57,289 bases of DNA from positions 1 to 57,289 of the forward strand of contig JBBSUB010000001.1 of assembly GCA_038235345.1 (NCBI GenBank), read 5' to 3'. A program made the position numbers and the translations under genes. A model generated the notes under the pieces. It saw only the letters and a list, made by a program, of their open reading frames with translations. It was not told where the DNA came from and made no database searches. Below, in pieces: positions 36,224 to 57,289 of this stretch; position 1 is the stretch's first letter; every line of letters begins with the position of its first letter. Source of the stretch: Chitinophagales bacterium. GTDB taxonomy: Bacteria; Bacteroidota; Bacteroidia; Chitinophagales; Chitinophagaceae.

Positions 36224-36251
36224 TAAATATTAAAGATAAAAATCGAAAAAA

Positions 36252-38543: not shown

Positions 38544-38694
38544 AAGGTGAAGGGTTATTTTCCTTTCCTATTGAAAATATCTATTTCTAAAATAAAGTTG
38601 AATTTTAGGGTAACTTCGGCCAAAATTTACCTGGGTTAAATCTTCGATTTTAAATTTATTTTAACCGGAACAATCAATTTAGAAAACCAATTAA

Positions 38695-39264
38695 TTGCAA
38701 ATAGATACAGAAATATGGATACAAATACAGGCAGGAGATGAAAAAGCCTATGAAAAAATGTATACTTATTATTACCGGCATTTTTATATTTACGGGCAGA
38801 AGATCACCCAAAAGCTTCACCTGGTGGAAGATTCCATCCAGGAAATCATGATTTTTATCTGGAATAACCGGTCTACATTATCTACCATAAAATTTCCTGC
38901 TGCTTATTTTTACACTTCCTTTCGGAATCTTCTCGTTAATAAGTTGAAAACGCAAGGTGTCATTGTTTCAGATGAATATATAACTGAAGAAATTTCGGCT
39001 TTTTCAGAACTTAGAATGATAGGAAAAGAAGAAGAGCTTGCATTAAATACCCGATTAAAAAAAGCTTCAGGCTATCTGACTGCCCGCCAAAACGAAGCAA
39101 TCTTTCTTCGTTTTTATGAAGAACTTTCCTATGAGGAAGTAGCTGAAATTATGGGTATTACCGTTAAGGCGACATATAAAATTATGGCACGTGCACTTAG
39201 TGAACTAAAGAATAAATATGTGCATTTATTTATTTTATTTTTGAATCTGATTAATCTCTTCTAA
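38695..39264 (+). CDS. ECF sigma-70 factor (FecI-like, Bacteroidota PUL type)
   Basis: GDEKAY, EDSIQEIM..IW, LTARQNEAIFLRFYEELSYEEVAEIMGI; TTG start uncertain. Confidence 0.9.
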   Translation: MQIDTEIWIQIQAGDEKAYEKMYTYYYRHFYIYGQKITQKLHLVEDSIQEIMIFIWNNRSTLSTIKFPAAYFYTSFRNLLVNKLKTQGVIVSDEYITEEISAFSELRMIGKEEELALNTRLKKASGYLTARQNEAIFLRFYEELSYEEVAEIMGITVKATYKIMARALSELKNKYVHLFILFLNLINLF

Positions 39265-39451
39265 TCTTTTTCGATAAGCAATTGCTTCTGCTTAAATATA
39301 GACATGATACCTCCAGTTTCTGCATAGGTTTAAATGCTGAAACCAATAATAACAGGTATCATTATGTCTTGGCTGAATTCTAATTTTAGAGATCTGGTAT
39401 GATCTATTTTCTTGACGGAATTGAAATTTAAGTAAATTTTTATTTTCTTAT

Positions 39452-39478
39452 GGGGTAAAAACATGTTTACTTAACTCT
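39452..39478 (+). promoter_or_regulatory. Putative ECF promoter GGGGTAA-N15-ACTCT (copy 1)
   Basis: Identical boxes and spacing recur at 41154 and 42626, all intergenic and on the coding strand. Confidence 0.7.
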
Positions 39479-39771
39479 ATAATATATTGCCTGGATTGAT
39501 ATTTAAAATAGGTTCCTTCAATTTTAAAGAATCATCCCCATTGCAAAATGTAACTTCCGGTTAGAAAACTGTTAGAAAAAAAATGTGGAAATTTTTTATA
39601 GTTACACTTACAATAAAAAAAGCCAGGGAGTAATTTTCTGGCTTTATGTTTTTAATAGATAGAGTAATCGAAACCGTTTTGGGAAACGAAAGATTTTTCT
39701 TACCCTAAATGAGATAAATACTTTTAATAACAACTCCGGTGAATAAATTGCCGGTTGTTTAAATCCTGATT

Positions 39772-41115
39772 ATGAGCCTTATAAAATTACTTCGATTCTT
39801 ATTATTTGTTCCGTTCGTATGCGCAGTAAATCATGTCCAGGCTGCTGAACTAAGCAACCAATCAGATAGTACAATCATTACCTATTTTAAAAACAGAATA
39901 AACGATTACCGTAAAGCCGATCATGAATCCTTGCCGGATAGCAAAAAGATGGCATTAAAAGATATAGAACAAAGCCGGAAAAATGTATGGGCTTTATGGA
40001 TAAAAGCAAATACGGATGTAGCAGAATTACCCCAGCCAATAAAGGCTTTGGCAGATAATAAACATATCTATCCGATGAATACCTGGCAACTTCATGGTGA
40101 AGACCCGATGCCGTTTTATTATATTTCTAAAGGGGAACAACCGAAAATAGGTTATCCTATGTTTATTAATTTACACGGATCCGGTCCTAAAAAGAGTGAG
40201 TTTGAGGCTGCTCTAAGATGGGGATTGATGTATAAAGATGTTCCTTCGGTTTATTTTATTCCTCAAATTCCAAATGAAAAAAGATACCGTTGGTGGTTTA
40301 AGCCGGAGCAGTTTGCCTGGGAAAAACTTTTTAGGCTTGCCATGCTGGACGGAAATGTAGATGCTAATAAAATTTATGTAATGGGCATTTCAGAAGGAGG
40401 TTACGGTAGCCAGCGTTTGGGCGCTTTCTATGCAGATTATCTTGCCGGTGCCGGACCGATGGCCGGTGGAGAGCCGTTAAAAAATGCGCCGCCATTAAAT
40501 TTCCGGAATATTGCCTTCTCTTTTCAAACGGGAGAAAATGACGGAGGATTCGGTCGCAATTCAAATACTGCAAGGGCAAAAAAAGTATTTGATAGCCTGC
40601 AGGTTTTACACCCGGCTGATTTCAAACACAATATTGTGCTTCAGCCAAAGAAAGGGCACGGTATTGACTATACGCCAACAACTCCCTGGTTAATTCAATA
40701 TAAAAGAAATCCGCAACCCGCTAATATTAGTTGGGTTTACTTCCCAATGGATGGCCGGTATCGTAACGGGTTTTACAATGTGTCAATCAATAAACAATTA
40801 AATATTTCCGACACTGCAAATATCGATCGTGCTATTTTTAATCTGAATATTGATAAAAAGAAGAACACGATTGATTTAGAGGTGTGGCTGGCAGACGGAG
40901 ATCTTACTCAAAAGGAAGAAGTAAAGCAAGGAGAAATTTCCATATTCCTTAGTCCTGAATTGGTTGATCTTTCAAAAAAAGTGAAATTATTTTATAAGGG
41001 AAAATTAATTTTTAATAAAAAAGTTCAGTCCGATGAAAATGTCCTGGTGGAAAGCTGTGCCCTATTTGGTGATCCGGAACGCCTTTTCCCGGCTAAAATA
41101 AAGGTGGTTTTATAA
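39772..41115 (+). CDS. Secreted alpha/beta-hydrolase (esterase/peptidase-like)
   Basis: Signal peptide, INLHGSG oxyanion motif, nucleophile GISEGG, candidate Asp (GEND) and His (KGHG). Confidence 0.8.
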   Translation: MSLIKLLRFLLFVPFVCAVNHVQAAELSNQSDSTIITYFKNRINDYRKADHESLPDSKKMALKDIEQSRKNVWALWIKANTDVAELPQPIKALADNKHIYPMNTWQLHGEDPMPFYYISKGEQPKIGYPMFINLHGSGPKKSEFEAALRWGLMYKDVPSVYFIPQIPNEKRYRWWFKPEQFAWEKLFRLAMLDGNVDANKIYVMGISEGGYGSQRLGAFYADYLAGAGPMAGGEPLKNAPPLNFRNIAFSFQTGENDGGFGRNSNTARAKKVFDSLQVLHPADFKHNIVLQPKKGHGIDYTPTTPWLIQYKRNPQPANISWVYFPMDGRYRNGFYNVSINKQLNISDTANIDRAIFNLNIDKKKNTIDLEVWLADGDLTQKEEVKQGEISIFLSPELVDLSKKVKLFYKGKLIFNKKVQSDENVLVESCALFGDPERLFPAKIKVVL

Positions 41116-41153
41116 TGAACGTTACTATAATTTGAAAATAAATATTTAAGGTT

Positions 41154-41180
41154 GGGGTAAAATATAAAAAAGCCGACTCT
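41154..41180 (+). promoter_or_regulatory. Putative ECF promoter GGGGTAA-N15-ACTCT (copy 2)
   Basis: ggggtaa aatataaaaaagccg actct upstream of the TlpA-like gene. Confidence 0.7.
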
Positions 41181-41298
41181 TTATGTGTAGAAAATGTGGC
41201 TATTACATTTTGAATAAACACCAGCTTTCTATTATAAAGCTTTATTTTTAAGGCTCATTTTTTAAAAAAAAATAACTTCCCACACATAAACACTTCTA

Positions 41299-42426
41299 AT
41301 GAAAAAAATTCTCTTTTTATTTTCCCTGACATCTTTTGCTGTAGGTTCCACCTCCGCCCAAAAAGCCAAGGTCAACGGAAATTTTCAATTTTCTGAACCG
41401 GTTGATATGGTTTTTCTTTCTTTCCGTTCCGGCGATGAGAACATAACCGATAGTTCCAAACTGGTGAATAATAAAGTATCTTTTTCCCAAAATATTTCTG
41501 AGCCAACTTTGGGAAATTTGATGGTTCGTTTTAAAGCAAAAGAAGAAGGGAAGAGACCGCGCATGGATAGAATGCCTTTGTATCTGGAAAGCGGAACTAT
41601 AAATATTATTGCGAAGGATTCCTTGAAATTTGCCAAAGTAACTGGGTCTAAATCGCACGTAGAATTTGATAAATTAGTTAAAAGTGAGCAGCCATTCAAT
41701 AAAAAGGCGGCGGAATTAGGCGAGCAATATAGAGAGTTTAGCAAAGCGAAGGATAAAGAAGGAATGGCTAAGACAGAGGAAGAATTTGACAAGTTATCAG
41801 ATGAAAAGAGTGAAGCTGTTTACCATCGTTATTTAAAAACAAATCCGAATTCACCCATTGCATTATATGTGTTGAATCAATATGTAGGATACGATTTAAA
41901 TGTTCCTAAAGTAGAACCTTTATTCAAAGGGCTTTCTGATAAAAATAAAAAATCGGTTGCAGGAGTTGCCTTTAGTGAGCGCCTTGAAACAGCCCGCAAA
42001 ACAGCTGTAGGGGCTATGGCTATGGCGTTTACTCAAAATGATACGCTTGGAAATTCTGTTACTCTGGCTTCATTTAAAGGGAAGTATGTATTGGTTGATT
42101 TTTGGGCAAGCTGGTGCGGTCCATGCCGTGCAGAAAACCCAAATGTGGTGAAAGCATTTAATGAATATAAAGACAAAGGATTTACTGTCTTGGGTATTTC
42201 TCTTGACCAGCCGGGCAAACACCAGGCTTGGATGGACGCCATTCATAAAGACAATCTTACCTGGACTCAGTTAAGTGATTTGAAGGGATGGAAAAATGAA
42301 GTGTCAACGATGTATGGTATCAGTGCCATTCCACAAAACTTATTAATAGACCCCTCAGGAAAGATTATTGCTAAAAATATCCGTGGCGAAGAATTAAATA
42401 AAACACTTGCAGAGGTGATAAAATAA
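41299..42426 (+). CDS. TlpA/AhpC-TSA family thiol-disulfide oxidoreductase with N-terminal DUF4369-like domain
   Basis: Signal peptide, LVDFWASWCGPCRAENP, WTQLSDLKGW, IPQNLLIDP. Confidence 0.93.
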   Translation: MKKILFLFSLTSFAVGSTSAQKAKVNGNFQFSEPVDMVFLSFRSGDENITDSSKLVNNKVSFSQNISEPTLGNLMVRFKAKEEGKRPRMDRMPLYLESGTINIIAKDSLKFAKVTGSKSHVEFDKLVKSEQPFNKKAAELGEQYREFSKAKDKEGMAKTEEEFDKLSDEKSEAVYHRYLKTNPNSPIALYVLNQYVGYDLNVPKVEPLFKGLSDKNKKSVAGVAFSERLETARKTAVGAMAMAFTQNDTLGNSVTLASFKGKYVLVDFWASWCGPCRAENPNVVKAFNEYKDKGFTVLGISLDQPGKHQAWMDAIHKDNLTWTQLSDLKGWKNEVSTMYGISAIPQNLLIDPSGKIIAKNIRGEELNKTLAEVIK

Positions 42427-42447
42427 GATATTGAAGATTGTAAATTT

Positions 42448-42511
42448 ATTGCTTCTCATGTAGCAATTTTTTAGTTTAAATTCAAAGGGGATGTTTCTGC
42501 ATCCCCTTTTT
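42448..42511 (+). ncRNA. Two-hairpin 3' element / terminator (copy 1)
   Basis: ATTGCT-tctcatgt-AGCAAT then GGGGATG-tttctg-CATCCCC-ttttt; repeated at 55865. Confidence 0.6.
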
Positions 42512-42625
42512 GTATTTACCACCAAAATGGAGGATTGTAGCAAGAATTTTATATTCGTTTTTATATCTCATATAATTATACTTTTTAAATATTTCAAAAA
42601 AATTATTTAAAAAGTATTTTTTTTT

Positions 42626-42652
42626 GGGGTAATAAATTAAAAAATGAACTCT
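42626..42652 (+). promoter_or_regulatory. Putative ECF promoter GGGGTAA-N15-ACTCT (copy 3), 12 nt before fecR ATG
   Basis: ggggtaa taaattaaaaaatga actct. Confidence 0.7.
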
Positions 42653-42664
42653 ACCTGAAGTACT

Positions 42665-43906
42665 ATGACAAAAAACGAATTTTATAAAGACTTTAAGGAG
42701 GAAGATTTCATCAATGATGAATTTTTTCAAAACTGGATTTTAGGATCTGGCGATCTAGGCAGTGACTCGTTTTGGAAAGGGTTTTTATTGGATTTTCCTG
42801 AAAAGACGGAAACCATTGAAAAGGCAAAAAACGCTCTTCAAACAATTCCATTTTATGAAGTGATTAGTGAGGTAGCGCCTTCTGATGGAAAAATTAAAAC
42901 ATCTTTTTTACAAGTAAGTAAAGTTCTGGGATTAAAAGGGAAGAAGACCAGTGCGCGCGTTGTTCCTGTTTCTTTCAGATGGTGGGCTGTAGCTGCTTCT
43001 GTGATGCTTCTCTTATCCGTTGGTCTCTTTTTCTTTAAAAATAATGAAACTCATCAACAACTGGCAAAGGTGGAACAGACTCCCGGATTGATTAATGATT
43101 TGACTCCTGGTGGAAATAAAGCTATCCTGACTTTAGGAAATGGGCAAACCATTATCCTGGATAGTGCCGGCAATGGAATTCTCTCAACGGAGGATGGTTC
43201 TGCTGTAATGAAATTGGCCGATGGTCAGATTGCTTATGAAGGAACAGGAAAAAACGGAACCAACGAAATCGTATATAATACCATTTCAACACCTCCTGGT
43301 GGCCAATATAATCTCACCCTTTCTGATGGATCAAAAGTGTGGTTAAATGCAGAATCTTCCCTAACGTTCCCGGCATCTTTTACCGGAAACGATAGAAATG
43401 TGGAACTAAAAGGGGAAGGATATTTTGAAATTGCGCATAATAAAGAAAAGCCTTTTCATGTGTCTGTAAACAATACAATAGTAGAAGTATTGGGAACACA
43501 TTTTAATATCAATGCCTATACGGATGAAAATTCGCTGAAAACTACTCTCCTGGAGGGTTCCGTAAAAGTCGTAAAAGGGTCTGAAAATGTGATCATTGAA
43601 CCTGGACAACAGGCCGTTGTTAATAATACCTCGAATTCAATGACCATCAATAAATCCGTAAACCTCGAAGAAGCAGTTGCCTGGAAAGATGGCCTGTTTC
43701 AGTTTGACAATACGGACTTGCAGGATGTCATGAAGCAGTTAGGCCGCTGGTATGATGTCAAAATAGAATTTGAAAATGATGTCCCGGCCAAAAGATTTAC
43801 CGGTAAAATTTACCGCAATGTGAATGCTTCTGAAGTCTTTAAAATTTTAGAAATATTGGATATACATTTTAAGCTGGAAGGAAAAACAGTCATTGTAACA
43901 AAATAG
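42665..43906 (+). CDS. fecR: FecR-family anti-sigma factor
   Basis: EDFINDEFFQNW N-terminus, single TM (WWAVAAS), LSDGSKVWLNAES, GEGYFEI, VLGTHFNI, AWKDG, LGRWYDV. Confidence 0.95.
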   Translation: MTKNEFYKDFKEEDFINDEFFQNWILGSGDLGSDSFWKGFLLDFPEKTETIEKAKNALQTIPFYEVISEVAPSDGKIKTSFLQVSKVLGLKGKKTSARVVPVSFRWWAVAASVMLLLSVGLFFFKNNETHQQLAKVEQTPGLINDLTPGGNKAILTLGNGQTIILDSAGNGILSTEDGSAVMKLADGQIAYEGTGKNGTNEIVYNTISTPPGGQYNLTLSDGSKVWLNAESSLTFPASFTGNDRNVELKGEGYFEIAHNKEKPFHVSVNNTIVEVLGTHFNINAYTDENSLKTTLLEGSVKVVKGSENVIIEPGQQAVVNNTSNSMTINKSVNLEEAVAWKDGLFQFDNTDLQDVMKQLGRWYDVKIEFENDVPAKRFTGKIYRNVNASEVFKILEILDIHFKLEGKTVIVTK

Positions 43907-44018
43907 AACATTTCTAAATAGCTGTGAATTTTTATCCTTTCACATAATTAATGTGGGGATATTGAAAAGGATCAAACGAAGAATTGCTCTCAGAAAACCA
44001 AAACAGACAAATGGAAAA

Positions 44019-44043
44019 CCGGAAGTGTTTGCGGCACCTCCGG
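44019..44043 (+). promoter_or_regulatory. GC-rich hairpin in the fecR-susC spacer
   Basis: CCGGAaGTG-tttgcgg-CACcTCCGG with no U-tail. Confidence 0.5.
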
Positions 44044-44112
44044 ATAAATGTAAGTTGTCAAAAATAGAATCGGAAAGATTACTAATTATTTAAACTTAGA
44101 CAAGACAAATTT

Positions 44113-47100
44113 ATGAAATTAATTGTAAGTGTTTTCTCCTTTAAAACACCTTTGCTCAAATCTATTTTGATGATGAAAATGGTTATTTTCCTGATGATCG
44201 CCTCCTGTATTCAGGTACGGGCAGCCGGACAAAATGTTACGCTTTCCAAAACAAATGCACCCTTGAAAGAAATATTTAAAAGTATTGAAAATCAGAGTGG
44301 GTATTTGTTTATGTATGAGACGGGACTCATAAAAACCACGAAGGCTTCGGTACAAGTTCAAAATGCTGAAATAGACCGCGTCATGAATGAATGCCTGAAA
44401 GGTACTTTGCTTGGTTATACCATCGTGGGCAAAAGTATTTTAATAAAGAGGATCCCGAATAAAAAATTGGCTCCTAAATTATCTGAACAGCTGGCAGATG
44501 GAGTGCTTAACAGAATAATAACCGGCCAGTTAAAGGATGAAAATGGAAATCCACTTGAAGGTGCTTCTGTTTTTGTACAGTCAAATGAAAAAACCGGTAC
44601 AACCACAAATAAAGACGGAAGGTATTCGATTAATATTTCTTCGAATACGAGAGTCTTGGTCTTTTCTATGGTTGGGTTTAGCGTTGTTGAGAGGGAAATC
44701 GGAAGAGATACTGTTATAAATATTATCTTGAAGGTTAAGGCCGGTGGTATGGACGAAGTAGTAGTTGCCGCTGGATATTTTGACAGAACTAAATCAAGTG
44801 TCACTGGTTCTCAAATAAGAGTAACGGGTGATGAATTAAGAAAAGTGGGCTCCCTCAATTTTATGCAGGCTGTCAATGCATTTGACCCGTCTATTAGAAT
44901 GAGCCCCAATGTAGAATCCGGATCAGATCCAAATAAAGTTCCGGAAATAACAATTCGTGGAGAGAATGGGTTCGACCTTCGGTCAAGTGCTGATGATTCC
45001 CGCAGCAATCCTAACGCACCTCTATATTTACTCGATGGGATTGAAGTTTCTCCTACAAGAATTTATGATCTTGACATGAACAGAATAGAGTCTTTTACTA
45101 TTCTTAAAGACGCATCTGCAACCTCACTTTACGGCTCAAGAGGAGCAAATGGTGTTATTTTAATAACAACAATACCTCCTAAACAAGGTGCAATAAAAGT
45201 CTCTGTTAATACAAATACTACGGTATCTATTCCTGATTTGAGGGATTATAATCTGATGAACGCTAAAGAGAAGTTTGAATATGAAACTCTTGCAGGATTA
45301 TATACAAGCCGCACAAGTAACAGGGAAGAGCAAATACTGCTGGATATAAAATATAATGAAAGATTGTCTGAGGTTACCCGTGGAGTAAATACATATTGGC
45401 TTTCCAAACCCTTACAGACAAGTGTAAACCAAAGGTATAATACATTTTTTGAGGGAGGTGATAAAAGTTTTAGATATGGCGTAAATCTAAATTATGATAG
45501 TGATAAGGGAGTATTAAAGGGCTCCGGACGTGAGAGATATGGCATAAACGTAAGCTTTAATTATAATGCCGGAAGAAATTTTCTTATAAGAAACGATGTA
45601 ACCGTGAATAATGTTGAGGGATCAAACTCTCCATACGGATCCTTCTCAACTTACGCGCTTCAAAATCCAATAGAAAGGATATACGATAAAACCTCAGGGG
45701 AAATGGTACGTACATTCGTATTTAATAATGGAGTTAATCCATTAGTTAATGCAAATCTTCCAAATACTGATATTAATAAATACACTGAATTTCAGGATAA
45801 CTTTAATATGGATTGGAGAATTAATAGCAATTTCAGGGTTACAGGAAGAGCTTCATTAATTAAAAAGATTTCAAAGACAGAAAAATACCTTTCTCCTCTA
45901 TCATCCGTATTCGATAAGGAAACAGATGCAAGTAAAAAAGGTAGTTATACAAATTCAGATATAGACCAACTAAATTTTGACGGGAATATTACTGCATCTT
46001 ATAATAATACATTCGCAAATAAAATAACGACAAATATAGGAATCGGGTCGAATGTTACTACAACTTCCGCTATGGGTGAAGGATATACTGCAACCGGATT
46101 TCTAAGTGATAATATGCGATTTGTACAATATGCCCAACAGTTCAAGGAGAATTCTAAACCATCGTGATATTTTGATAAATCAAGAATGATGGGATTTTTT
46201 GCAAATACAAACATCGGTTATGAAAACAGGTATTATTTAGATCTTTCCTTTAGAACTGATGGTTCAAGTCGTTTTGGAAAAGAGTCTCGCTTCGCCCCTT
46301 TCTGGTCAGTCGGTGCTGCATGGAATGTTAACAGAGAAAAATGGTGGAACAATGATGCCTCTCTTAAAATAAGAGCGTCAACTGGTAGTACAGGATCTGT
46401 AAATTTTTCTGCAGATCAGGCCATTACGAAGTACCAATATAATTCAGAGTACGAGTATAATGAAGTTTATGGAGCTCAGTTGTTGGGATATGGAAATCCC
46501 GCTCTGAAATGGCAGAACACTATTCAAAATAATCTGGGTCTTGATCTGACTTTGTGGAAAAATAAGGTTGTTTTGAATGTTGATGGCTACATTAAAAATA
46601 CTCAAAATCTTTTGCTTCCCATTGATGTAGCTCCATCTACAGGATTTCTTAGCTATACAGAAAACCTTGGCTCAATGGAAAATAAAGGTATCGATATGAG
46701 ATTGCGGTTTAATATAATACAAAGTAGAAAAGATGGTTTTAGCTGGAATGTTACCTTTGGTGCCGCAACAAATAAAAATAAAATTAAGAATCTTTCTAAC
46801 GCTCTTGAAGCATTAAATCAGGAAGCGAATACCAAAGAAAGTGTTACAGGGCCGAAACCATTAAGAACTTACCAGGCAGGAAGGTCCCAAAGCTCTTTAA
46901 TGGTTGTTGAATCTTTAGGTATCGATCCAAGAACAGGTAACGAGATATTCAGAAAACTTAATGGTGATCTCACCTTTGAATATGACCCGCGGGATAAAAT
47001 CATAGTTGGAGATCTTAATCCTACGTGGATGGGAACGTTCCAGACAAACCTCTATTATAAAGGATTTAACCTATATGCTATCTTGGCTTATGAATATGGT

Positions 47101-47469
47101 TCGAAAATTTATAATTCTACATTAGCACAAAAAGTAGAGGGTTCTTCTCCTTATTATAATGCCGATAGAAGAGTGCTTTATGATAGATGGAAGACTCCGG
47201 GAGATATAACACTATACAAAAGGATAGATGATACCGCTCCACCCTATCAAACTACCAGGTTAGTACAGGATAATAACTTTTTAAGACTGCAAACTTTATC
47301 TCTCTCTTATGATGTACCAGGAAATATCTTGGAAAAAGTAAAGGTTGAAAGAGCTAAATTAATTCTATCAACCAGTGATTTGTTTCGGTTATCGACTGTG
47401 AAAATTGAAAGAGGAACTTCTTATCCCTTTGCAAGAACATTTTCGCTCGCACTTAATTTAACTTTTTAA
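44113..47469 (+). pseudogene. susC: SusC TonB-dependent transducer (N-terminal STN domain) interrupted by one in-frame TGA at 46165-46167
   Basis: ORFs 44113-46167 and 46186-47469 share a frame; reads ...ENSKPS*YFDKSRMMGFF...; plug ILKDASATSLYGSRGANGVILITT, RTDGSSRFG, C-terminal F. Confidence 0.9.
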
Positions 47470-47480
47470 AATTTTCCTAA

Positions 47481-48890
47481 ATGAAAATAAAGATAATAGT
47501 ATTATGTTGGTTAGCCATTTCAGTCACATCATGCAAGAAGTGGTTAGACGTAGATCTTGTTGACAAAGTTACCGAAGAGAAACTGTTCAGTACGCCACAA
47601 GGTTATCAGGAAGCTCTTGCGGGGGTATATAGCTCAATGGCCTCCTCAAGTTTATACGGGAAGTCACTTACAATGGAGAATTTGGATGTGTTAGCTCAGT
47701 ATTATAGTTATGAAGGAATATCTACAACGTATGAAAAGTTTAAAAACTATGATTACGAAGATGCCGGATCTCAAAATAAAATTCTTGCAATTTGGAAAGG
47801 GATGTATTCAGCTATAAGTGAATCTAACAATATTATCAAATGGGCTGGTAAATCAAATGATATTCTTTCGCCGGAGATGAAAAGCCAGGTATTAGGAGAA
47901 GCTTATGCGTTAAGAGCTTATTTACATTTTGATATTATCAGGATGTTTTGTCCGGACGTGAAAAGATCTCCCTCCAAACCTGGAATACCATACAATTTGG
48001 AGTTTGGAGTTTCGCTACCACCTATATATACTATTGCAGAGAGTGTTCAACTAGTTGTAGATGATCTTAAAAAAGCTGAAGCTTTATTAATTAATGATCC
48101 CATTACGTCAGTCAAACCATTTGAAATGGTGAACAAAAATGAAGCAGATAAATATGTAGCTAGAATCAATCTTTACGGAGTAAAAGCACTTCTTGCCAGG
48201 GTTAGTTTAATGAGAGGTGATAAAATGAATGCGATTAAATATGCAAAAGAGGTTGTTGAGTCTGGTAAATTCAGACTTCTTGACTTTGCCAGTACCGACA
48301 AGTCGGACAAAGAAATAGATATTCTTTTTTCTGATGAACATATTTTTTCTTTGCGAAATAAGAATTTGTCCGAGTACACAATTAATCTTCATAATCCGGA
48401 AATTACAGCAACGTCAAATCGTTCAGCCTACCTTCCCTTTGTAAACCTGTCTTCTTTATACGAAAGTAATAATGATGATGTCAGGTATATTAAGTGGTTC
48501 TCCGGAGCTAATGGAAATTTTGCAAAATTTAATGTAAATAACAAAGAAAAATTCTTTCCCAAAATTCCAATGATAAAACTATCTGAGATGTATTTAATAC
48601 TGGCAGAGTGTTATTTAGGAAAGGATGATTTGCTTGCGCAATCGTATATAAATACATTAAGGAATCATAGAATAAGAAACAATTCTCCATGGGGATTTCT
48701 TACAATAGAGTACATAATTCAAGAGATAAAGCGAGAGTTCATCGGGGAAGGGCAATTGTGGTATGCATACAAAAGATTGAATATAGGGGTTCCAACAAGT
48801 AGTGGGATAATAGGAGTAGTTCCTCCAAGTGATAAAATATTTGTATTCCCTATACCACTAAAAGAAATTGAAATTGGTAATAGAATTTAA
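47481..48890 (+). CDS. susD: SusD/RagB lipoprotein
   Basis: Lipobox VTSC, GEAYALRAYLHFD, LSEMYLILAE, REFIGEGQ..Y..KR, PIP..E. Confidence 0.93.
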   Translation: MKIKIIVLCWLAISVTSCKKWLDVDLVDKVTEEKLFSTPQGYQEALAGVYSSMASSSLYGKSLTMENLDVLAQYYSYEGISTTYEKFKNYDYEDAGSQNKILAIWKGMYSAISESNNIIKWAGKSNDILSPEMKSQVLGEAYALRAYLHFDIIRMFCPDVKRSPSKPGIPYNLEFGVSLPPIYTIAESVQLVVDDLKKAEALLINDPITSVKPFEMVNKNEADKYVARINLYGVKALLARVSLMRGDKMNAIKYAKEVVESGKFRLLDFASTDKSDKEIDILFSDEHIFSLRNKNLSEYTINLHNPEITATSNRSAYLPFVNLSSLYESNNDDVRYIKWFSGANGNFAKFNVNNKEKFFPKIPMIKLSEMYLILAECYLGKDDLLAQSYINTLRNHRIRNNSPWGFLTIEYIIQEIKREFIGEGQLWYAYKRLNIGVPTSSGIIGVVPPSDKIFVFPIPLKEIEIGNRI

Positions 48891-48906
48891 AAAATCTGAG
48901 ATCATA

Positions 48907-49662
48907 ATGAAAATGAAAACAATACTAAAATATTCTTCAGTGCTGGTAATCATTGTATTTTTTGCGTCTTGCAAAAAGAATATTGATAAATTGTATGAGG
49001 GAAAAGCCAGAATTCAGTTTAAATATTATTCACTGGATTTCAATAAGAAAATGATTTTGAATAATAAAACTACGTATTCTTTTGGTATGAAGGATGAATC
49101 GGTAGTCATTGATACTGCAAAAATAGTTGTCGAATTTCTTGGCGCGGCTTCAAATGTTGATCGCACTTATAAAGTCAAGGTTGCTCCTGATTCTACTACT
49201 GCCAAAGAAGGCGTGCATTATGAGCTAATATCAAAGACTCAAACCTTCAAGGCTGGAGCCTATTCAGATACCTTAAAAGTTGTCGTGCTTAAAGGAAGTT
49301 TAAGTAAAAGTTTTAAGAATCCCGAAGATATGCGCCTGGCTTTAGAATTAGAACCTAGTGATGATTTTGATTTGGGAATGAAAGAAGGATTGAAAACATA
49401 CTTACATATCAATAATTATTTATCTGAGCCGGTTTGGTGGAATACTTCTCTGAGATACAATTATATAGGTTTTTACCATCCAAAAAAATGGAAGATATTG
49501 ATTTCATTTAATGCTCAATTCGCAAATGCCGAAACGTGTCCATTTGATGTTAATAATTCCGGAAGGCAGTATTTCCAGGGCCTTGCAAATTATCTGAATT
49601 CGATTCCCACTTTTGATGATGAAACCGGCAGTAGAATTTATATAGATAAATTGGTACCATAA
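48907..49662 (+). CDS. DUF4843-like lipoprotein
   Basis: Lipobox FASC, TYSF, STTAKEGVHY, EPVWW, G.Y...K; position right after susD. Confidence 0.75.
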   Translation: MKMKTILKYSSVLVIIVFFASCKKNIDKLYEGKARIQFKYYSLDFNKKMILNNKTTYSFGMKDESVVIDTAKIVVEFLGAASNVDRTYKVKVAPDSTTAKEGVHYELISKTQTFKAGAYSDTLKVVVLKGSLSKSFKNPEDMRLALELEPSDDFDLGMKEGLKTYLHINNYLSEPVWWNTSLRYNYIGFYHPKKWKILISFNAQFANAETCPFDVNNSGRQYFQGLANYLNSIPTFDDETGSRIYIDKLVP

Positions 49663-49697
49663 TTAAAATATAATTAAAAACACTAAATGTGTATATT

Positions 49698-51350
49698 ATG
49701 AAGTCATATAATATAATTTTATTGATCTTTTCAATTCTTTTACTTGGATCCTGTTATAAAGACCTCGGAACAAGTGAGAAAGATTACCGTGAAATAAACG
49801 AAATAGATATTAAAGGCATTGATGATTTGTACGCGAAAGATGTGGACGACAGCCTTAGTATATTCCCTGAAGTTAAAGGTACGTTGTACAGCGATACAAG
49901 TAAATTTAATTATTCCTGGGAGATTGATAATAAAATAGTGTCAACAGAGCTGAAGCTGAATATAATTGTGGATTTCATGCCTGGAAATAAGATATCAAGA
50001 TTTATTGTTGAGGACAAAGGAACAACGATTAAAAAATATTTCAGATTTAATCTGAATGTCTCATCCTCCACGGCGGGAAATCTCATAATGGTACTTAGCA
50101 AATCAAAAGGTAAAGCAGAACTCTCCTATTTACGATTGGATAAACCTGCAAATTGGGCGATAAATTTCTATGAAGAAAGATATGGAGTTCCGCTTGGAAA
50201 TAACCCGCAAAAGCTTGGATTTATAATGGCAGAAGCTTCCAGAGTTCAATGCTATCCATTTGTGAATGGATTTGGAAGAATACTTGTATTAGTAGATAAT
50301 AAGTTGGCATTGCTTGATAAGAGAACTTTAGCTCCGGACCCTACACCGTATCTTACCGGTGAAGCTTATACAGGAATTGCTTCTTATCCCCCTCCGAATA
50401 CTTCAGGATACAAGCCAGAGTTTTTTAAAGAAGGTATAAGCGTATGGAGAAGCAACGCCTATGGTACTGGTTTTCAACAACTCACTGAATTTAACTTGAT
50501 TTCCGGAGGTGCACTTTATTTTGCAACACTTGCACCGTCAGTCTGGACTCCTAGCTTTTATTATAATAAGAAAAGTGTTTATGGAGCAAATGGATATTTC
50601 TCCCCCTTTGGTTTTTATGACGATATGATCCCTACAGCGAATAGTAATTTGTTTCAGCATGGATATTCCCTTGGTTACTTTATAGTATTTGATAAAATTT
50701 TTGGAAGGTTTGCATACTCTAGTTATGGAAGTAGTTATTCAATACCCACAACAGATGTAAAGGAATTTCCAGGTCATGATTTAATTTACGGATCGGCTAC
50801 AAGCCAGTCTGGTACATCATTTTCCGTACTGAAAGCACCGGATAATTCCTTGCGATTTTTGCTGTTGGGGAAATCAGGTTCAAAGTATTCTCTTGCAGGA
50901 GAAGTAAGCGGTGGTGTTGCAAATTCAGAATCTAGCTTCTACAACATGAAGACCTCACCCTATTTATTTTTCACTAAAGGAAATAAGCTGTATAAGTACA
51001 ATATACTTGATGTAAAATCTAACTCAGTTCCAAATGAGGGTCACTCTGTATTTTCTTTAACAACTCTTGGTTATTCAAATGATGCAGTTATAACCAGTAT
51101 GACTATCTCTCGTTCGGAAAATTCTCTCATCCTGGGCGTGTCCCGTTATGGGCAGGATAAAAATGGGGATGGCGATGAAAATAAGGGAGATATACTTGTA
51201 TTTGATCTTGATAAAGTTAGCTTCAACCTTACACTTAAGAAAAAATATGGTGGTGTATCAGGTATTCCTATAGATGTACAGATAAAATATCAAACAAACT
51301 GGAGAGATGGTAAATCTAATGGAGGCGTTACTTTACTTGACAATATTTAG
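49698..51350 (+). CDS. PKD-like family lipoprotein with probable C-terminal beta-propeller
   Basis: Lipobox LGSC followed by YKDLG, NEIDIKGI, YSWEI; NKLYKYN and C-terminal G.PIDV. Confidence 0.75.
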   Translation: MKSYNIILLIFSILLLGSCYKDLGTSEKDYREINEIDIKGIDDLYAKDVDDSLSIFPEVKGTLYSDTSKFNYSWEIDNKIVSTELKLNIIVDFMPGNKISRFIVEDKGTTIKKYFRFNLNVSSSTAGNLIMVLSKSKGKAELSYLRLDKPANWAINFYEERYGVPLGNNPQKLGFIMAEASRVQCYPFVNGFGRILVLVDNKLALLDKRTLAPDPTPYLTGEAYTGIASYPPPNTSGYKPEFFKEGISVWRSNAYGTGFQQLTEFNLISGGALYFATLAPSVWTPSFYYNKKSVYGANGYFSPFGFYDDMIPTANSNLFQHGYSLGYFIVFDKIFGRFAYSSYGSSYSIPTTDVKEFPGHDLIYGSATSQSGTSFSVLKAPDNSLRFLLLGKSGSKYSLAGEVSGGVANSESSFYNMKTSPYLFFTKGNKLYKYNILDVKSNSVPNEGHSVFSLTTLGYSNDAVITSMTISRSENSLILGVSRYGQDKNGDGDENKGDILVFDLDKVSFNLTLKKKYGGVSGIPIDVQIKYQTNWRDGKSNGGVTLLDNI

Positions 51351-51380
51351 AGAAGCCAATAACAGATAATATAAAAAATT

Positions 51381-53174
51381 ATGAATAAGATTATTGTACT
51401 ATTAATTATAACACTTTTTACTCTAACATCATGTATGAAAGATACTAGTGCTTATTTAGCTCAAACCAAAAAAGAGGTAACAATAGATCATTTTGATTCC
51501 GATAGTACGACTTCTGTAAGTAAAGAAGGGGAGTTATCCCCCGGAATACATCAGGTGAAAATAATGGTAACCTATAAAGGGATCGAGTCAGAAAGGAAGT
51601 TTAAATATTTTATGCCTGTGTCAATTGACAGGACCAAACAAATATCTCTTGTTTTTAACTTTCACGGAAGTTTAGGGCCTGGTGTGAATCCTTTGGAAAA
51701 TGTGTCTATGAACCACCCTCTTTCGCAATTGGCTATAAAAGAAAACTGTATAATTGTATTTCCTGCAGGTGAAGATAATGGTTCAGCGGTGAACTGGCAA
51801 AGTACAGATTATCACCTCCCTTTTGTTGACTCAATGTTGACTTATTTTAAGAATCATACACCCTCTCCTGATATAAACAGAATTTACACCTGCGGCCATT
51901 CAAGCGGAGCAATTTTCTCATTTGCACTTGCTTATGAGCGTTCGGAGATATTTGCTGCAGCAGTTCCTGTTTCCGGACAGATGAAGCTTACATCTTCTCA
52001 GATACCTTCAAGAGAGGTTCCGATAAGGGCATTTAATGGTAAAAATGATAAAACTGTTGTTTACAGTGCTGCCCTGGATAATATAAAAGCATGGGCGCGT
52101 ACCATCGGGGGATACTTTATATCAGATGCTGTTATGAGCGACACGCTAAAGATCGATAACTATAAACAATATCTAACAACTGCTTGGCATGGAGGTAAGG
52201 CAGATATAGAGTTTTTTACAATAGCTGATGAAGGTCATGATATCTCATGGAATTATATAATGCCCCTGATGTGGGAGTTTATGGATACTCATCCGAAGGA
52301 TAAGATATCTTCCGGTGTATATTTATCTTCTGAAATTAAGAAAATTGATGCGATGGTGGGCGAAACGTTTACTTCTTTAATTAAGTATTCTCCCGGAGCA
52401 AATGTTAGTCTGCAATCTTACCCCACTGACTGGACAGTGTCTTTTATAAACGATGTATTAACTGTAACAGCTCCCACTGACTTCTTTTCTTCCACCACTA
52501 TAAACAGGAAAGGGGAGATCGTTTTGAAAGCTGAGTATAACGGAGTCTCCTCAACTTTATCTATTCCATACATTTTAAATGCCCCAAAATTATTTTACGA
52601 GGTAGGAGATATTGAATATGATAGTGATTTTAACCCCATCGGAGTTGTATTTTGGGTTAATCCTCAAAATATTAAAGAGGCAAAGATTATTGCTCTTGAT
52701 AACGTTACAAAAAAGTTTGGCGATGTTGGAAGTAATTTCTTTACGCCAAGTTTCACAGACGGATATAGTAATACACTTGCCTTGATTGAAAGGGTAAAAT
52801 CGGCAAACTTAAATCTTGATGCATCCACAAGTGCTTTTATTTATGCCTATGAGTATAAGGCGTCTCGGGGAATGACTAATGGTTGGTATCTTCCGGCAGT
52901 AGATGAGCTTAAATCAGTTGATCAAAATCTTACACTTGTAAATAGCGCTTTGACAGCGAACGGAACTCCGCTACAGATTACATCTTCTGCATCTTCTTAT
53001 CATCTTTCTTCTACAATGGTAAATGAGGGAACGGTAGCAGTCCCCAAAAAAATGTTTTATACGTTTGACTTTCACTCGAATCCAAATTTTCATGGATATT
53101 ATAAACTCGCCCAAAAAGGAGATAATACCTCATTTGTTTCTACACGTCCTATTAAAAAAGTAATTAAACTCTAA
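51381..53174 (+). CDS. Lipoprotein: PHB-depolymerase/LpqC-like esterase fused to a C-terminal DUF1566/C-type-lectin-fold-like domain
   Basis: Lipobox LTSC; VFNFHG, RIYTCGHSSGA nucleophile, FAAAVPVSG, GKND, EGH; C-terminal EVGD..IGVVF, DGYSNT, GWYLPAVDEL, LSST, TRPI. Confidence 0.8.
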   Translation: MNKIIVLLIITLFTLTSCMKDTSAYLAQTKKEVTIDHFDSDSTTSVSKEGELSPGIHQVKIMVTYKGIESERKFKYFMPVSIDRTKQISLVFNFHGSLGPGVNPLENVSMNHPLSQLAIKENCIIVFPAGEDNGSAVNWQSTDYHLPFVDSMLTYFKNHTPSPDINRIYTCGHSSGAIFSFALAYERSEIFAAAVPVSGQMKLTSSQIPSREVPIRAFNGKNDKTVVYSAALDNIKAWARTIGGYFISDAVMSDTLKIDNYKQYLTTAWHGGKADIEFFTIADEGHDISWNYIMPLMWEFMDTHPKDKISSGVYLSSEIKKIDAMVGETFTSLIKYSPGANVSLQSYPTDWTVSFINDVLTVTAPTDFFSSTTINRKGEIVLKAEYNGVSSTLSIPYILNAPKLFYEVGDIEYDSDFNPIGVVFWVNPQNIKEAKIIALDNVTKKFGDVGSNFFTPSFTDGYSNTLALIERVKSANLNLDASTSAFIYAYEYKASRGMTNGWYLPAVDELKSVDQNLTLVNSALTANGTPLQITSSASSYHLSSTMVNEGTVAVPKKMFYTFDFHSNPNFHGYYKLAQKGDNTSFVSTRPIKKVIKL

Positions 53175-53469
53175 GCGGAGGATAGAATCTTGTTATTATT
53201 TTATTCTTTATGGCTGAATCTATTGATGTGAAAAGTAAGGGTAATATCTTGTTTGAAGATTTAAATTTTATAGATTCAAAAGGATGTTTAGGATAGCAAA
53301 CTTATTTTTCTGAATGGTTTAATTAAAGGTGGGGTAAAATAATATAGAGCAAAAATGCAATCTATATGCTTAAACAATTTTATTTCCCATTTTAGTTGTG
53401 TTTAGGCCAAAAATGTTATTTAAATAGGCTTATACACTATAATTATTATTTATAAAAAAAAACAGTACA

Positions 53470-54666
53470 ATGAACAAAAATATTTTTATAGGTATCATTA
53501 CCTTATTGTTAAGTAGCAACATAGCCCGGTCACAAGCACCGAAAAGTATTGACTTCAAAAACATCTCTTTTTCCGAAGCACTTACACTTGCAAAAGAAAG
53601 CAATAAGCCTATTTTTATTGACTGTTATACTTCCTGGTGCGCCCCCTGTAAAAAAATGGATCAAACGGTTTTTGTAAATGATACCATTTACGAGTTTTAT
53701 AACGCTCATTTTGTCAACCTTAAAATTGATATGGAGAAAGGCGAAGGAGTAGACCTGGCTAAGAAATATAAAGTAGGTTCTTTTCCTACTTATTTATTTG
53801 TTGATTCCAAGGGGGAAATTGTTCACCGTTCTGCATCACTGATGCCGGTAAAGGACTTTTTAGAAGAAGGTAAAAAGGCGCTGGAACCTTCCACATCTTA
53901 CTCTGCTTTGGCAAAAAAGTACGCGGAAGGGGATAGGTCTAAAGAGCTTTTATTAAGATATGCAGTGGATCTTAAAAGGATCAATCGTTCCGAATCCGAT
54001 AAAGTTGCTTTAGAACTAATGGATAAAATTACCGGAGAAGACCTGCATAGCGAATTTGGCTGGAAAGTCATTGAAGAGTTTTCTATGTCTGAACGTGACA
54101 AACCAGGAAAATATTTGATGTCAAATAAAAAATATTTTGTTGACTTGAAAGGAGAAACGCAAGTGCAAACTGTTTTAAACAGACTCAAAATGTCTGATAT
54201 GTATCGCTTGATTAGGGCAAAGGATAGTGTTCAGTTCTTTAAAAATCTGCGGGAAATGAGTCAGGATAATAATGAACTAACTCAAAGAAACGTGGCAATG
54301 CTGGAAATGCAATATTATCTGGAAGTCAATAATGCGGACTTATTTGTCTCCGCAGCGCAAAAGGCCAGAGAAGGAGTGTTGAAAATGAATGATGTTGATT
54401 TAAGCTTTATTGCAAGAAGGGCACTATACATGGCTGCCGGTAATGATAAAATAAAAAAGGAAGCTTTGGAGTTGGCAAGGCAGGCGGTGGTTTTAAACCC
54501 GGAAGAGTATAGTAACCAGGGAACCTTGGGCAGCATTTGTTTAGAAATGAAACTGAAGAAGGAAGGCCTTAAGGCTGCTAAAAAAGCAAGAGCACTGGCA
54601 GATGAATCTACCTCTAAAATTCAAAAAATTGCGCAGGACCTGGTAGATAAAATTGAAGCCATATAA
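53470..54666 (+). CDS. Secreted thioredoxin-family protein with helical/TPR-like C-terminus
   Basis: Signal peptide, IFIDCYTSWCAPCKKM, KIDMEKGEG, FPTYLF. Confidence 0.9.
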   Translation: MNKNIFIGIITLLLSSNIARSQAPKSIDFKNISFSEALTLAKESNKPIFIDCYTSWCAPCKKMDQTVFVNDTIYEFYNAHFVNLKIDMEKGEGVDLAKKYKVGSFPTYLFVDSKGEIVHRSASLMPVKDFLEEGKKALEPSTSYSALAKKYAEGDRSKELLLRYAVDLKRINRSESDKVALELMDKITGEDLHSEFGWKVIEEFSMSERDKPGKYLMSNKKYFVDLKGETQVQTVLNRLKMSDMYRLIRAKDSVQFFKNLREMSQDNNELTQRNVAMLEMQYYLEVNNADLFVSAAQKAREGVLKMNDVDLSFIARRALYMAAGNDKIKKEALELARQAVVLNPEEYSNQGTLGSICLEMKLKKEGLKAAKKARALADESTSKIQKIAQDLVDKIEAI

Positions 54667-54710
54667 TTTATTTATTCTAACGATCATCCTAAAATTTAAA
54701 ATTAACATTC

Positions 54711-55844
54711 ATGGACAAAATTCTGTATTCTCTGTGTCTTCTTATTTTTTGTTCTTCAGCAACGCATGCCCAGAAAAAAGGCGATATTCAGGGAGAAGTA
54801 AAGTCTGCTTCTAAGATTAAAAAGATATCCTTGAACTATCGTATCGGCGAAGAATCCATAACCGATAGTGCAGAAGTTAAAAGTGGGCGCTTCCACTTTA
54901 CTTATACTGTAAGCGAACCAACCTTTGCGATGATACGCTTGATATATGCGCCTAAAGAAGGTAGTGAGAGACAGGGGTATGAGGCAAGGCAAATCTTTCT
55001 GGAAACAGGGATTTCAAACAAAATTGTGATCAATGATTCCTTAAAGAATGCAATGGTAAATGGTGGTGCGGCTATGAGCGATTTTAAACAATTGCAAAGT
55101 ATGCTGGATCCTATTGAAAAACAAAGAAGAGAATTCAATGAAAAGTATAGAGAATATTCTAAGAACAAAGATACTGCAGGCATGCAAAAAATACGCGGAT
55201 TGATGGAAGTGGCGGATGGTAATTCAATCGAAGATGTATATCACCGTTTTTTGAAAAACAACCCAAAATCTCCCATAGGAATATATGTGCTGGATCGGTT
55301 TTCCGGATACGCAATTGATCCCGCCATAGCAGAGCCTTTATTCAATAAATTATCTGTGGCTAATCAGAAATCGGAGTCGGGCCGCGCCTTTAAAGAAAGA
55401 ATAGAAACAGCAAAGAAAACTACTGTAGGGGTTATTGCTATGAATTTTACCCAAAATGATACTTTAGGTAAGCCCGTATCCTTGACTGATTTCAAAGGCA
55501 AATATGTATTGATTGATTTTTGGGCAAGTTGGTGTGGTCCTTGTCGGCAAGAAAATCCCAATTTGGTTAGTGCTTTTAACCAATATAAAGATAAAAACTT
55601 TACCGTTTTAGGTATTTCGCTTGATCAGCCCGGGAAGGAACAGTTATGGTTAGACGCAATTCATAAAGATGAGCTACATTGGACTCAGTTGAGTGATTTG
55701 AAGTTTTGGGATAATGCTGTAGCGAAACTATACGGTATCAGGTCCATTCCACAGAATTTACTATTAGATCCCTCCGGAAAAATAATCGCCAAAAATATAC
55801 GCGGGGAAGAACTTCATACAACACTGAAGAAGCACATTAAATAA
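54711..55844 (+). CDS. TlpA/AhpC-TSA family thiol-disulfide oxidoreductase (paralog of 41299-42426)
   Basis: LIDFWASWCGPCRQENP, WTQLSDLKFW, IPQNLLLDP, KIIAKNIRGEEL. Confidence 0.93.
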   Translation: MDKILYSLCLLIFCSSATHAQKKGDIQGEVKSASKIKKISLNYRIGEESITDSAEVKSGRFHFTYTVSEPTFAMIRLIYAPKEGSERQGYEARQIFLETGISNKIVINDSLKNAMVNGGAAMSDFKQLQSMLDPIEKQRREFNEKYREYSKNKDTAGMQKIRGLMEVADGNSIEDVYHRFLKNNPKSPIGIYVLDRFSGYAIDPAIAEPLFNKLSVANQKSESGRAFKERIETAKKTTVGVIAMNFTQNDTLGKPVSLTDFKGKYVLIDFWASWCGPCRQENPNLVSAFNQYKDKNFTVLGISLDQPGKEQLWLDAIHKDELHWTQLSDLKFWDNAVAKLYGIRSIPQNLLLDPSGKIIAKNIRGEELHTTLKKHIK

Positions 55845-55864
55845 TTATATACGCTTGTAAGTTG

Positions 55865-55924
55865 ATTGCTTCTCATGTAGCAATTTTTAGTTTGAATTTG
55901 AGGGAGTGTTTCTACACTCCCTTT
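55865..55924 (+). ncRNA. Two-hairpin 3' element / terminator (copy 2)
   Basis: ATTGCT-tctcatgt-AGCAAT then GGGAGTG-tttcta-CACTCCC-ttt. Confidence 0.6.
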
Positions 55925-55977
55925 CGTTAATTCCCTTAAATCTCCCTGCAGTAATGTGTTTTCATCAAATCCTTCAC

Positions 55978-56003
55978 AAAAAAAGCCGCTCTACAAAGCG
56001 GCT
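55978..56003 (-). terminator. Intrinsic terminator of the DUF6266-like gene
   Basis: aaaaaaAGCCGCT-ctacaa-AGCGGCT with U-tail on the minus strand. Confidence 0.75.
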
Positions 56004-56030
56004 CAAAAAATTCAAACTTCCAGCGGTTTT

Positions 56031-56672: not shown

Positions 56673-56925
56673 AGTTTTTGTTTTTTAAGGGTTTTAGAAT
56701 TGATTCATTGAAATTGTTGCTGTTAGTTTAAATTTTTTGCGGGGCAACCTGAACCATTAACGGGTACAAATTCACTTTGTTATGTATTATAAAATAATTG
56801 CTTTCGTATTCTTCCAACTGCTTTCACATGCTTATTAATTCTGCCACTTGCCCGAGGGTTATACGGTTTGCCACTCCTTGCCGCCATTTGCTGGTATAAT
56901 TTCTTCTGTTTCATACAGAAGATTT

Positions 56926-56978
56926 CTTCGGGTCTCCTTCGGGTCATGTTCGGGACATGTCTTGAGGGTGCATCGGGG
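56926..56978. repeat. ~11-bp-period tandem TTCGGG repeats
   Basis: cTTCGGGtctc cTTCGGGtcat gTTCGGGacat, then degenerate units (gaGGG, aTCGGG). Confidence 0.7.
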
Positions 56979-57078
56979 AACCGCTGTTTTCCTGGAATGC
57001 ATGTTTTTAAATTTCAAAAAATGGGCAAAAGAGGAGCGGGTTGGGACCCGGGGAAGGGGGCAATTAATGAACTTTACC

Positions 57079-57125
57079 CCATGGTTCGTGTCCTTTCACG
57101 GACAACTCCATGGTTCGTGTCCTTT
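57079..57125. repeat. 18-bp perfect direct repeat, 29-bp period
   Basis: ccatggttcgtgtccttt at 57079-57096 and 57108-57125. Confidence 0.85.
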
Positions 57126-57289
57126 AGGTTTGTATTCATTAATTATTAAATCACATTACTATTATTACTACTTTTCTTTTTTTGGTTCTTTTTTTCTTTT
57201 AGAATTCACTATTTTATGTGGATAAACACTAACCAGCAGCAGCGGCTCATTAAGTTCCGTGTCAAGGTTAAATACCTATGTGGGGATAG

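Follow-up and report, generated by a model that had tools for sequence, protein, structure and literature searches.

RagAB of Porphyromonas gingivalis is a SusCD system that imports peptides or proteins. Like RagAB, ButCD of Bacteroides fragilis is a SusCD pair without glycan enzymes, and it sets a precedent for non-glycan, even disulfide-bonded, SusCD cargo (PMC11467351; papers given by PMC number are cited for the accessible part of their text). About 52% of susC/D loci carry no carbohydrate-active enzyme (CAZyme), so that the CAZyme-free state alone is ordinary, and the cargo of such loci is an open question (PMC6499787, Lapebie et al. 2019). Here, a locus of eleven genes was analysed, all on the + strand at 38695-55844 of a 57,289-nucleotide stretch of a Chitinophagales soil bacterium (assembly GCA_038235345.1, contig JBBSUB010000001.1, positions 1 to 57,289; the whole stretch is called the window). 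As in polysaccharide utilization loci (PULs) and CAZyme-free susC/D loci (PMC6499787), susC and susD are adjacent and accompanied by surface lipoproteins, a surface enzyme and control by an extracytoplasmic function (ECF) sigma factor and an anti-sigma factor. The locus differs from these in that its sole conserved enzyme, EstS, is an Esterase_PHB/LpqC-like esterase, its accessory lipoproteins are of the DUF4843 and PKD_2 families, and exported thioredoxins are attached, a gene set not described in the accessible text of PMC6499787. Compared with a canonical PUL, the adjacent susC/susD pair is present (susC being interrupted here) and a glycoside hydrolase (GH) or polysaccharide lyase (PL) gene is absent from the locus.

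The relation to RagAB and ButCD is distant only (SusD to ButD, E 9e-7; C-terminal half of SusC to RagA, 5e-30, and to ButC, 1.5e-12), and SusC and SusD are orthologous to neither pair. ButCD has a metallopeptidase gene, unlike the cassette here, and the words thioredoxin, DUF and PKD do not occur in the main text, as accessible, of the ButCD paper (PMC11467351). In a literature search whose scope excluded subscription papers and supplements (PULDB, ECF group tables), neither DUF4843/PKD_2 loci nor this esterase clade were found to be described; DUF4843 appeared in off-topic papers only, and 'PKD-like family' together with SusD in none. The cassette is a real, conserved variant of the Sus-like importer, apparently without prior description. 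Its core consists of the following genes:

44113..47469, + strand: SusC with STN, CarboxypepD_reg, plug and barrel (Pfam, NCBIfam), interrupted in this strain
47481..48890, + strand: SusD lipoprotein (PF14322, PF07980)
48907..49662, + strand: DUF4843 lipoprotein (PF16132, 93 bits, over cut-off; start codon picked by alignment)
49698..51350, + strand: PKD_2 lipoprotein (PF16407, 74 bits, over cut-off)
51381..53174, + strand: EstS, lipoprotein esterase (catalytic domain ~50-305, beta-sandwich linker, DUF1566/Lcl_C-like tail)

Homologue searches returned 167 PKD and 186 EstS relatives, and an EstS alignment of 65 sequences led to 47 genome loci, of which four (Clostridium, Campylobacterota) were set aside and 43 used (two pairs share a genome). 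Open reading frames (ORFs) of the 43 loci were labelled by BLAST to the window's proteins, and all counts cover labelled ORFs. A single-sequence locus scan with the PKD protein gave no confirmed relative. The hosts are Bacteroidota of soil and gut, among them Pedobacter, Sphingobacterium, Chitinophaga, Carboxylicivirga, Odoribacter, Butyricimonas and Bacteroidales metagenome-assembled genomes. PKD_2 adjoins EstS in 41 of 43 loci (the misses being one contig end and one true exception), a recurrence that argues against a chance gene order, and the thioredoxin gene TrxTPR adjoins EstS in 37 of 43 (misses: four contig ends, two true). A downstream TlpA gene was found in 11 of the 43 loci, and the second esterase of the locus, EstP, in none.

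For comparison, a DUF4843/PKD_2 SusCD class was defined here, which corresponds to no published family, by the order FecR-SusC-SusD-DUF4843-PKD_2, usually followed by TlpA/Trx; the locus fits this order. In a quick tree of 80 SusDs of this type, the 20 that belong to esterase loci (that of the window plus 19 orthologues out of 36) fell on one side of a branch with a Shimodaira-Hasegawa-like approximate likelihood ratio (SH-aLRT) support of 92, which became 100 when one esterase-less neighbour joined them. Pairwise identities of SusC (rho 0.80), DUF4843 (0.89), PKD (0.88) and EstS (0.86) tracked that of SusD, and those of TrxTPR (0.24) and FecR (0.18) did not, the pairs not being independent; the TrxTPRs of esterase loci formed two supported clades discordant with the SusD tree. 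Judged by its alignments, SusC is a mosaic, with an STN region like that of the own-genome paralogue (68% identical, against 23-34% to seven orthologues) and a plug and barrel like those of the orthologues (plug 60-89% identical to the seven, 75-89% in the five closest, and 53% to the paralogue). Because of the 43-locus counts, the SusD tree, the identity correlations and the SusC mosaic, the core unit is SusC-SusD-DUF4843-PKD_2-EstS, with signalling and redox genes that hold their place but are exchanged. An earlier model-made annotation of the window from its letters alone (the sequence-only reading) had treated the eleven genes as one unit and proposed a co-occurrence check; the DUF4843, PKD-like and esterase genes were indeed inherited together across the 43 Bacteroidota loci, and the unit stands for the five-gene core, EstP and the downstream TlpA being local make-up. 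EstS was found in none of 120 other genomes of the own genus and PKD_2 in 5 of 301 genomes of the phylum, a patchy distribution, which is not proof of absence elsewhere. EstS-like catalytic domains (30-43% identity) also occur in Clostridium and Campylobacterota contigs without SusCD genes.

EstS carries a lipobox, an oxyanion HGS motif and a triad (S174/D223/H286) invariant in 65 of 65 sequences, as is H95, and is predicted to sit at the cell surface. Its model (predicted local distance difference test, pLDDT, 89) shows a catalytic domain, a beta-sandwich linker and a tail that matches DUF1566/Lcl_C (19 of 65 members; Atlas 0.96) and presumably has a C-type-lectin-like fold. Short forms (~400 or 315 amino acids), lacking the tail or both tail and linker, occur in otherwise intact cassettes, and the tail is therefore dispensable. 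The best fold match was the Lihuaxuella polyhydroxybutyrate (PHB) depolymerase 9BYU (Z 25.7, root-mean-square deviation 2.5 over 240 residues), in a near tie with feruloyl esterase (Z 24.9) and acetyl xylan esterases (Z 23.9). The top profile match in the PDB was the fungal acetyl xylan esterase 9J07 (E 1.9e-10), feruloyl esterases coming next, and NCBIfam NF050058 matched with E 4.7e-20 at 72.2 bits, under its cut-off of 150. At position x1 of the lipase box (Gx1Sx2G), 38 of the 65 sequences have Q, 25 H and one L, with one unmatched, so that 63 of 65 are polar. With extracellular type-1 dPHA-scl depolymerases (for example that of Lihuaxuella thermophila, 8DAJ/9BYU) EstS shares the fold, the oxyanion His before the lipase box and the catalytic-linker-binding layout; it differs in its polar lipase-box residue, sub-cut-off score, lipid anchor, DUF1566 tail and SusCD cassette. 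Fungal CE1-type esterases (AoAXEB 9J07/9J08, 8JH8, 5X6S) are closest by profile and share the fold and the polar residue; EstS differs from them in its ~20% identity and in having no GH or carbohydrate-binding module partner in the cassette.

The remaining six genes of the locus are:

38695..39264, + strand: ECF sigma factor, FecI-like (Pfam Sigma70_r2/r4_2; TIGR02937 over cut-off)
39772..41115, + strand: EstP, alpha/beta hydrolase, accessory gene (predicted cleaved signal peptide, periplasmic; triad S207/D257/H296)
41299..42426, + strand: TlpA1, DUF4369 plus TlpA thioredoxin fold, accessory gene (WCGPC, signal peptide)
42665..43906, + strand: FecR anti-sigma factor (Pfam; 60% identity to the FecR encoded at the paralogous locus in the own genome)
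53470..54666, + strand: TrxTPR (Trx-helical), exported thioredoxin with a long C-terminal region (WCAPC; place conserved, gene exchanged between loci)
54711..55844, + strand: TlpA2, DUF4369 plus TlpA (WCGPC)

ORF calls together with Pfam and NCBIfam scans thus recovered all eleven co-oriented genes of the sequence-only reading. Its putative tetratricopeptide repeat (TPR) in the thioredoxin protein had no match in Pfam. Among the eleven genes, the Pfam scan gave zero matches to GH or PL families; since the EstS fold is common to CE1-type acetyl xylan and feruloyl esterases, the term CAZyme-free holds for GHs and PLs alone. The C-terminal 400 amino acids of the PKD_2 lipoprotein match no named family, PDB sequence searches with the PKD_2 and DUF4843 proteins gave no match for either, and an Atlas search with the PKD_2 protein returned PKD-like clusters only. 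The guanine-plus-cytosine content is flat across the window.

The three oxidoreductases have a thioredoxin fold, an intact CxxC (WCGPC twice, WCAPC once) and an export signal as judged by eye, and CxxC is intact in 35 of 35 Trx-helical proteins. Alignments of orthologues showed no conserved Cys pair across SusC, SusD, DUF4843, PKD and EstS beyond the lipobox Cys, so that folding of the core proteins is unlikely to depend on the oxidoreductases, and a role as folding helpers of the cassette was disfavoured. Action on cargo or in general periplasmic redox is more likely. The DsbD membrane domain was present in five of five esterase-locus genomes and was not found in the own genome, where a DsbD_N domain sits at a contig end and the missing part is therefore probably an assembly gap; in the two regions examined, no genomic association of dsbD with DUF4843/PKD_2 loci was supported.

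PKD_2 matches numbered 60, 14, 9, 4 and 2 in five esterase-locus genomes, and 60 of these 89 regions, together with the own-genome paralogue, made up 61 sampled loci, 40 of them from one Odoribacter genome (one being its esterase locus). In 39 of the 61 loci, a TlpA/Trx gene lay within four co-oriented genes downstream of PKD_2, and in 36 it came first. When 42 of the 55 other downstream proteins were scanned, 10 belonged to peptidase families (S46, S9 twice, M13, M28, M20, S41, met-zincin, BSP and aspartyl) and 6 to GHs (GH92 twice, GH29 twice, GH2 and GH63-like), the remainder being thioredoxins, ABC-type or housekeeping genes. As a control, 3 of the 17 full-length own-genome SusC genes with room downstream had a co-oriented TlpA/Trx within <=9 kb, one of the three on account of TlpA1 of this locus; the genome holds 16 TlpA-like matches. 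The thioredoxins would then be general redox companions of the whole DUF4843/PKD_2 class, not dedicated esterase partners, and the specific coupling of ester hydrolysis to disulfide reduction, in the form proposed, finds no support, TlpA/Trx following in 39 of 61 class loci whatever their enzymes and TrxTPR showing a rho of 0.24. The Odoribacter genome, that of Odoribacter sp. AF15-53, has 60 PKD_2 matches in 5.2 Mb, and nearly all of its 40 sampled loci are ordered ECF-FecR-SusC-SusD-DUF4843-PKD_2, often followed by TlpA/Trx, peptidases or ABC-type genes, a massive expansion of a SusCD class without prior description. A second DUF4843/PKD_2 locus in the own genome, the paralogue compared above (on contig C21; positions 3660-15231 of the extracted region), has two TlpAs and no GxSxG esterase.

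The gene set for trans-envelope signalling, namely ECF sigma factor, FecR with a C-terminal domain and STN-bearing transporter, is complete, the STN domain scoring E 1.7e-5 and 24.9 bits, under its cut-off of 28.4. The same set marks FecI/FecR/FecA-type signalling with the ECF240-like sigmas of Bacteroidetes (PMC7826278); here, sigma is separated from fecR by two inserted genes, and each of these is preceded by a promoter-like motif, GGGGTA-N16-ACTCT, which is not given in the accessible text of PMC7826278 or PMC13472631. The copies of the motif are:

39452..39478, + strand: putative ECF promoter copy 1, GGGGTA-N16-ACTCT, 293 bp upstream of EstP
41154..41180, + strand: copy 2 of the putative ECF promoter, 118 bp before TlpA1
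42626..42652, + strand: copy 3 of the putative ECF promoter, 12 bp before fecR

Three exact copies in the window compare with 0.01 expected, and three remained when one mismatch was allowed, a number equalled by 5 of 100 shuffles. Bipartite elements of this kind are expected for ECF promoters, and several relatives carry related GGGGTA/AGGGTA elements ahead of fecR. The 4.8-Mb genome holds 8 matches to a looser form, every one in intergenic DNA; the five further matches lie on contigs C22, C26, C89, C134 and C360, three of them near contig ends. A sigma-70 promoter scan stayed at background (75 vs 64.6). The common motif suggests that EstP, TlpA1 and fecR are co-regulated, and the local add-ons EstP and TlpA1 are likely wired into the sigma factor's regulon; the signalling module itself appears to have been swapped in from a paralogous locus. 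The sequence-only reading of an ECF/FecR/STN-controlled, non-GH SusCD locus with a surface esterase is upheld, the esterase being a fixed, co-inherited part. A hairpin between fecR and susC (44019-44043), of which similar forms (<=4 differences) were seen in 8 of 32 related loci as well as in the C21 paralogue, is possibly an RNA processing or attenuation element.

The sequence-only reading had overlooked an in-frame stop in susC that splits the gene of this assembly into pieces of 684 and 427 amino acids:

46165..46167, + strand: premature in-frame TGA in susC

Contigs from soil run X1 (possibly the source run) carry the same TGA at a depth of 16, and an assembly slip at 46165 is therefore less likely than a real allele. 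Contigs from the soil runs X2, X3 and X4 (two other studies) have a Gly codon at 46165, and the aligned column is Gly in 35 of 35 SusC orthologues; recoding of TGA (selenocysteine or another code) was ruled out on these grounds. The TGA is a strain-level nonsense allele, and the frame is open at this site in close relatives. The stop truncates the barrel, and uptake is probably lost in this strain. A weak joint in a single contig of run X3, which would skip 38664-42573, has 27 letters on its short side and was left out of account. At 50021-53866, run X2 differs from the window in 83 of 2477 and 107 of 1365 letters, against 19 of 4634 in the susC/susD stretch, which suggests that the PKD-esterase-Trx end recombined among strains.

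The EstP triad is invariant in 54 sequences, and the lipase box reads GISEG, with a hydrophobic x1, in 54 of 54; the model (pLDDT 91) folds like generic esterases (3DOH/3WYD). The own genus holds distant relatives only (3 of 120 other genomes). The family occurs in varied contexts, and in 8 of 80 metagenome loci it lies in or beside other DUF4843/PKD_2-thioredoxin loci, these 8 representing about three independent contexts, six being near copies; this hints at repeated recruitment of esterases to the class.

Taken together, these comparisons allow a tentative reading, somewhat short of an even chance, in which ester-acylated peptide or protein cargo would be de-acylated at the surface, imported by SusCD and reduced at its disulfides in the periplasm. 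It is put forward because sister loci lean to peptidases and reductases and because EstS lacks the marks of a polyhydroxyalkanoate (PHA) depolymerase or a glycan partner. EstS would hold its substrate by the DUF1566 tail and cut ester bonds at the surface, stripping acyl groups from, for example, lipoproteins or lipopeptides, and the product would pass to SusD, DUF4843 and PKD_2, which would bind it for TonB-driven uptake through SusC. Cargo binding would be relayed from the STN domain of SusC to FecR and free the sigma factor, whose targets would be fecR-susC and, by way of the motif, EstP and TlpA1 as additions of this lineage; exported thioredoxins, probably fed by DsbD, would reduce the imported product in the periplasm.

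Several observations weigh against this proposal. The cassette has no peptidase, and the idea of a peptide cargo derives from sister loci. One Odoribacter genome supplies 40 of the 61, some of the counted peptidases may be unrelated neighbours, and 6 GHs occur too. The closest solved relative of EstS by sequence is a fungal acetyl xylan esterase, PHB depolymerase and feruloyl and acetyl xylan esterases nearly tie by structure, and the closest solved SusC is Bacteroides SusC 8AA4, which we take to be a glycan transporter, ahead of RagA. On the regulatory side, the motif pattern was defined after inspecting the intergenic DNA, and a terminator-like hairpin (39619-39645) lies between copy 1 and EstP. 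TrxTPR is preceded by the GGGGTA half alone, TlpA2 starts 44 bp after TrxTPR, and no complete copy precedes either. Somewhat less probable than the proposal itself is a wider reading, in which the esterase clade would be the first Sus-like scavenger of lipidated cargo (bacterial lipoproteins or lipopeptides), within a large non-glycan DUF4843/PKD_2 class of swappable signalling, redox and enzyme modules in soil and gut.

The best-surviving alternative, itself unlikely, is that EstS is a CE1-like carbohydrate esterase and that the cargo of the locus is acetylated or feruloylated oligosaccharides, or the acids set free from them, GHs being encoded elsewhere. This would fit its PDB profile matches, the fold scores (Z 23.9-24.9), the polar lipase-box residue, as in such esterases, and the DUF1566 tail with its presumed lectin-like fold. 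Odoribacter and Butyricimonas, where the cassette is common, are poor plant-glycan users, which counts against it. A susCD locus that lacks CAZymes may draw on CAZymes encoded at a distance (PMC6499787), but no GH was found between FecR and the Trx gene among the labelled ORFs of related loci, and when 46 mostly long distant EstS relatives were picked from 150 listed, one was fused to a GH domain.

Scavenging of a polyester (PHB or similar), in which EstS would depolymerise at the surface, SusCD import the oligomers and EstP finish in the periplasm, has a low probability. The top structural match (Z 25.7), the NF050058 match, the type-1 layout of catalytic domain, linker and binding domain, and the hydrophobic lipase-box residue of EstP speak for it, as do the distant EstS relatives, many of which are tandem esterase repeats (11 of the 46 with a type IX secretion system tail). 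Position x1 is hydrophobic in 81% of type-1 PHA depolymerases (PMC2666664) but H or Q in 63 of 65 EstS sequences, which also weakens the polyester named as a possible substrate by the sequence-only reading. The NF050058 score is 72 bits against a cut-off of 150, the oxyanion motif is HGS, not HGC, and none of the 43 orthologous loci has EstP.

About equally improbable is uptake of a small ester (lipid, lactone or ester-backbone siderophore), the thioredoxins then serving general periplasmic redox maintenance. ECF/FecR/STN genes with an esterase are the classic siderophore-uptake layout, Fes and BES are among the EstS fold matches (Z 18.2), and the strong conservation of the SusC plug points to a defined ligand. 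The fold scores of Fes and BES are well below those of the PHB/CE1 group, however, siderophore esterases act in the periplasm or cytoplasm whereas EstS is lipid-anchored and has a binding tail, and three surface lipoproteins suit larger cargo. That the esterase and thioredoxin genes are mere passengers beside SusCD in a decaying pseudogene locus, as the susC nonsense codon, the 16 TlpA-like matches and the non-conservation of EstP and TlpA1 might suggest, is very improbable and largely refuted for the core by the open susC frame in conspecific runs, the co-inheritance of the esterase (tree, 43 loci, identity correlations) and the control count of 3 in 17.

With a strongly conserved transporter and, inherited alongside it, a single enzyme whose chemistry can be predicted, the clade is an unusually clean test case for the cargo of CAZyme-free susC/D loci, and Pedobacter, Sphingobacterium, Chitinophaga and Odoribacter strains among its hosts are culturable. 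The cassette also gives entry to the larger DUF4843/PKD_2-thioredoxin class, which is dominant among the SusCD systems of at least one Odoribacter genome, and its common motif and mosaic SusC show how signalling modules move between loci.

Upstream, directly after rplL, lies a separate PUL (31063-38543) with a SusC without FecR, a SusD, a small BACON lipoprotein and a GH20 hexosaminidase (36843-38543, same strand), which ends 151 bp before the ECF gene, outside the span first described. GH20 was rejected as part of the locus, being present in 0 of 43 orthologous loci. Rfam gave 0 matches in 38000-57289. Downstream, a DUF6266 gene (56031-56672, - strand) runs towards the locus, and a hairpin resembling a terminator lies at 55983-56004.

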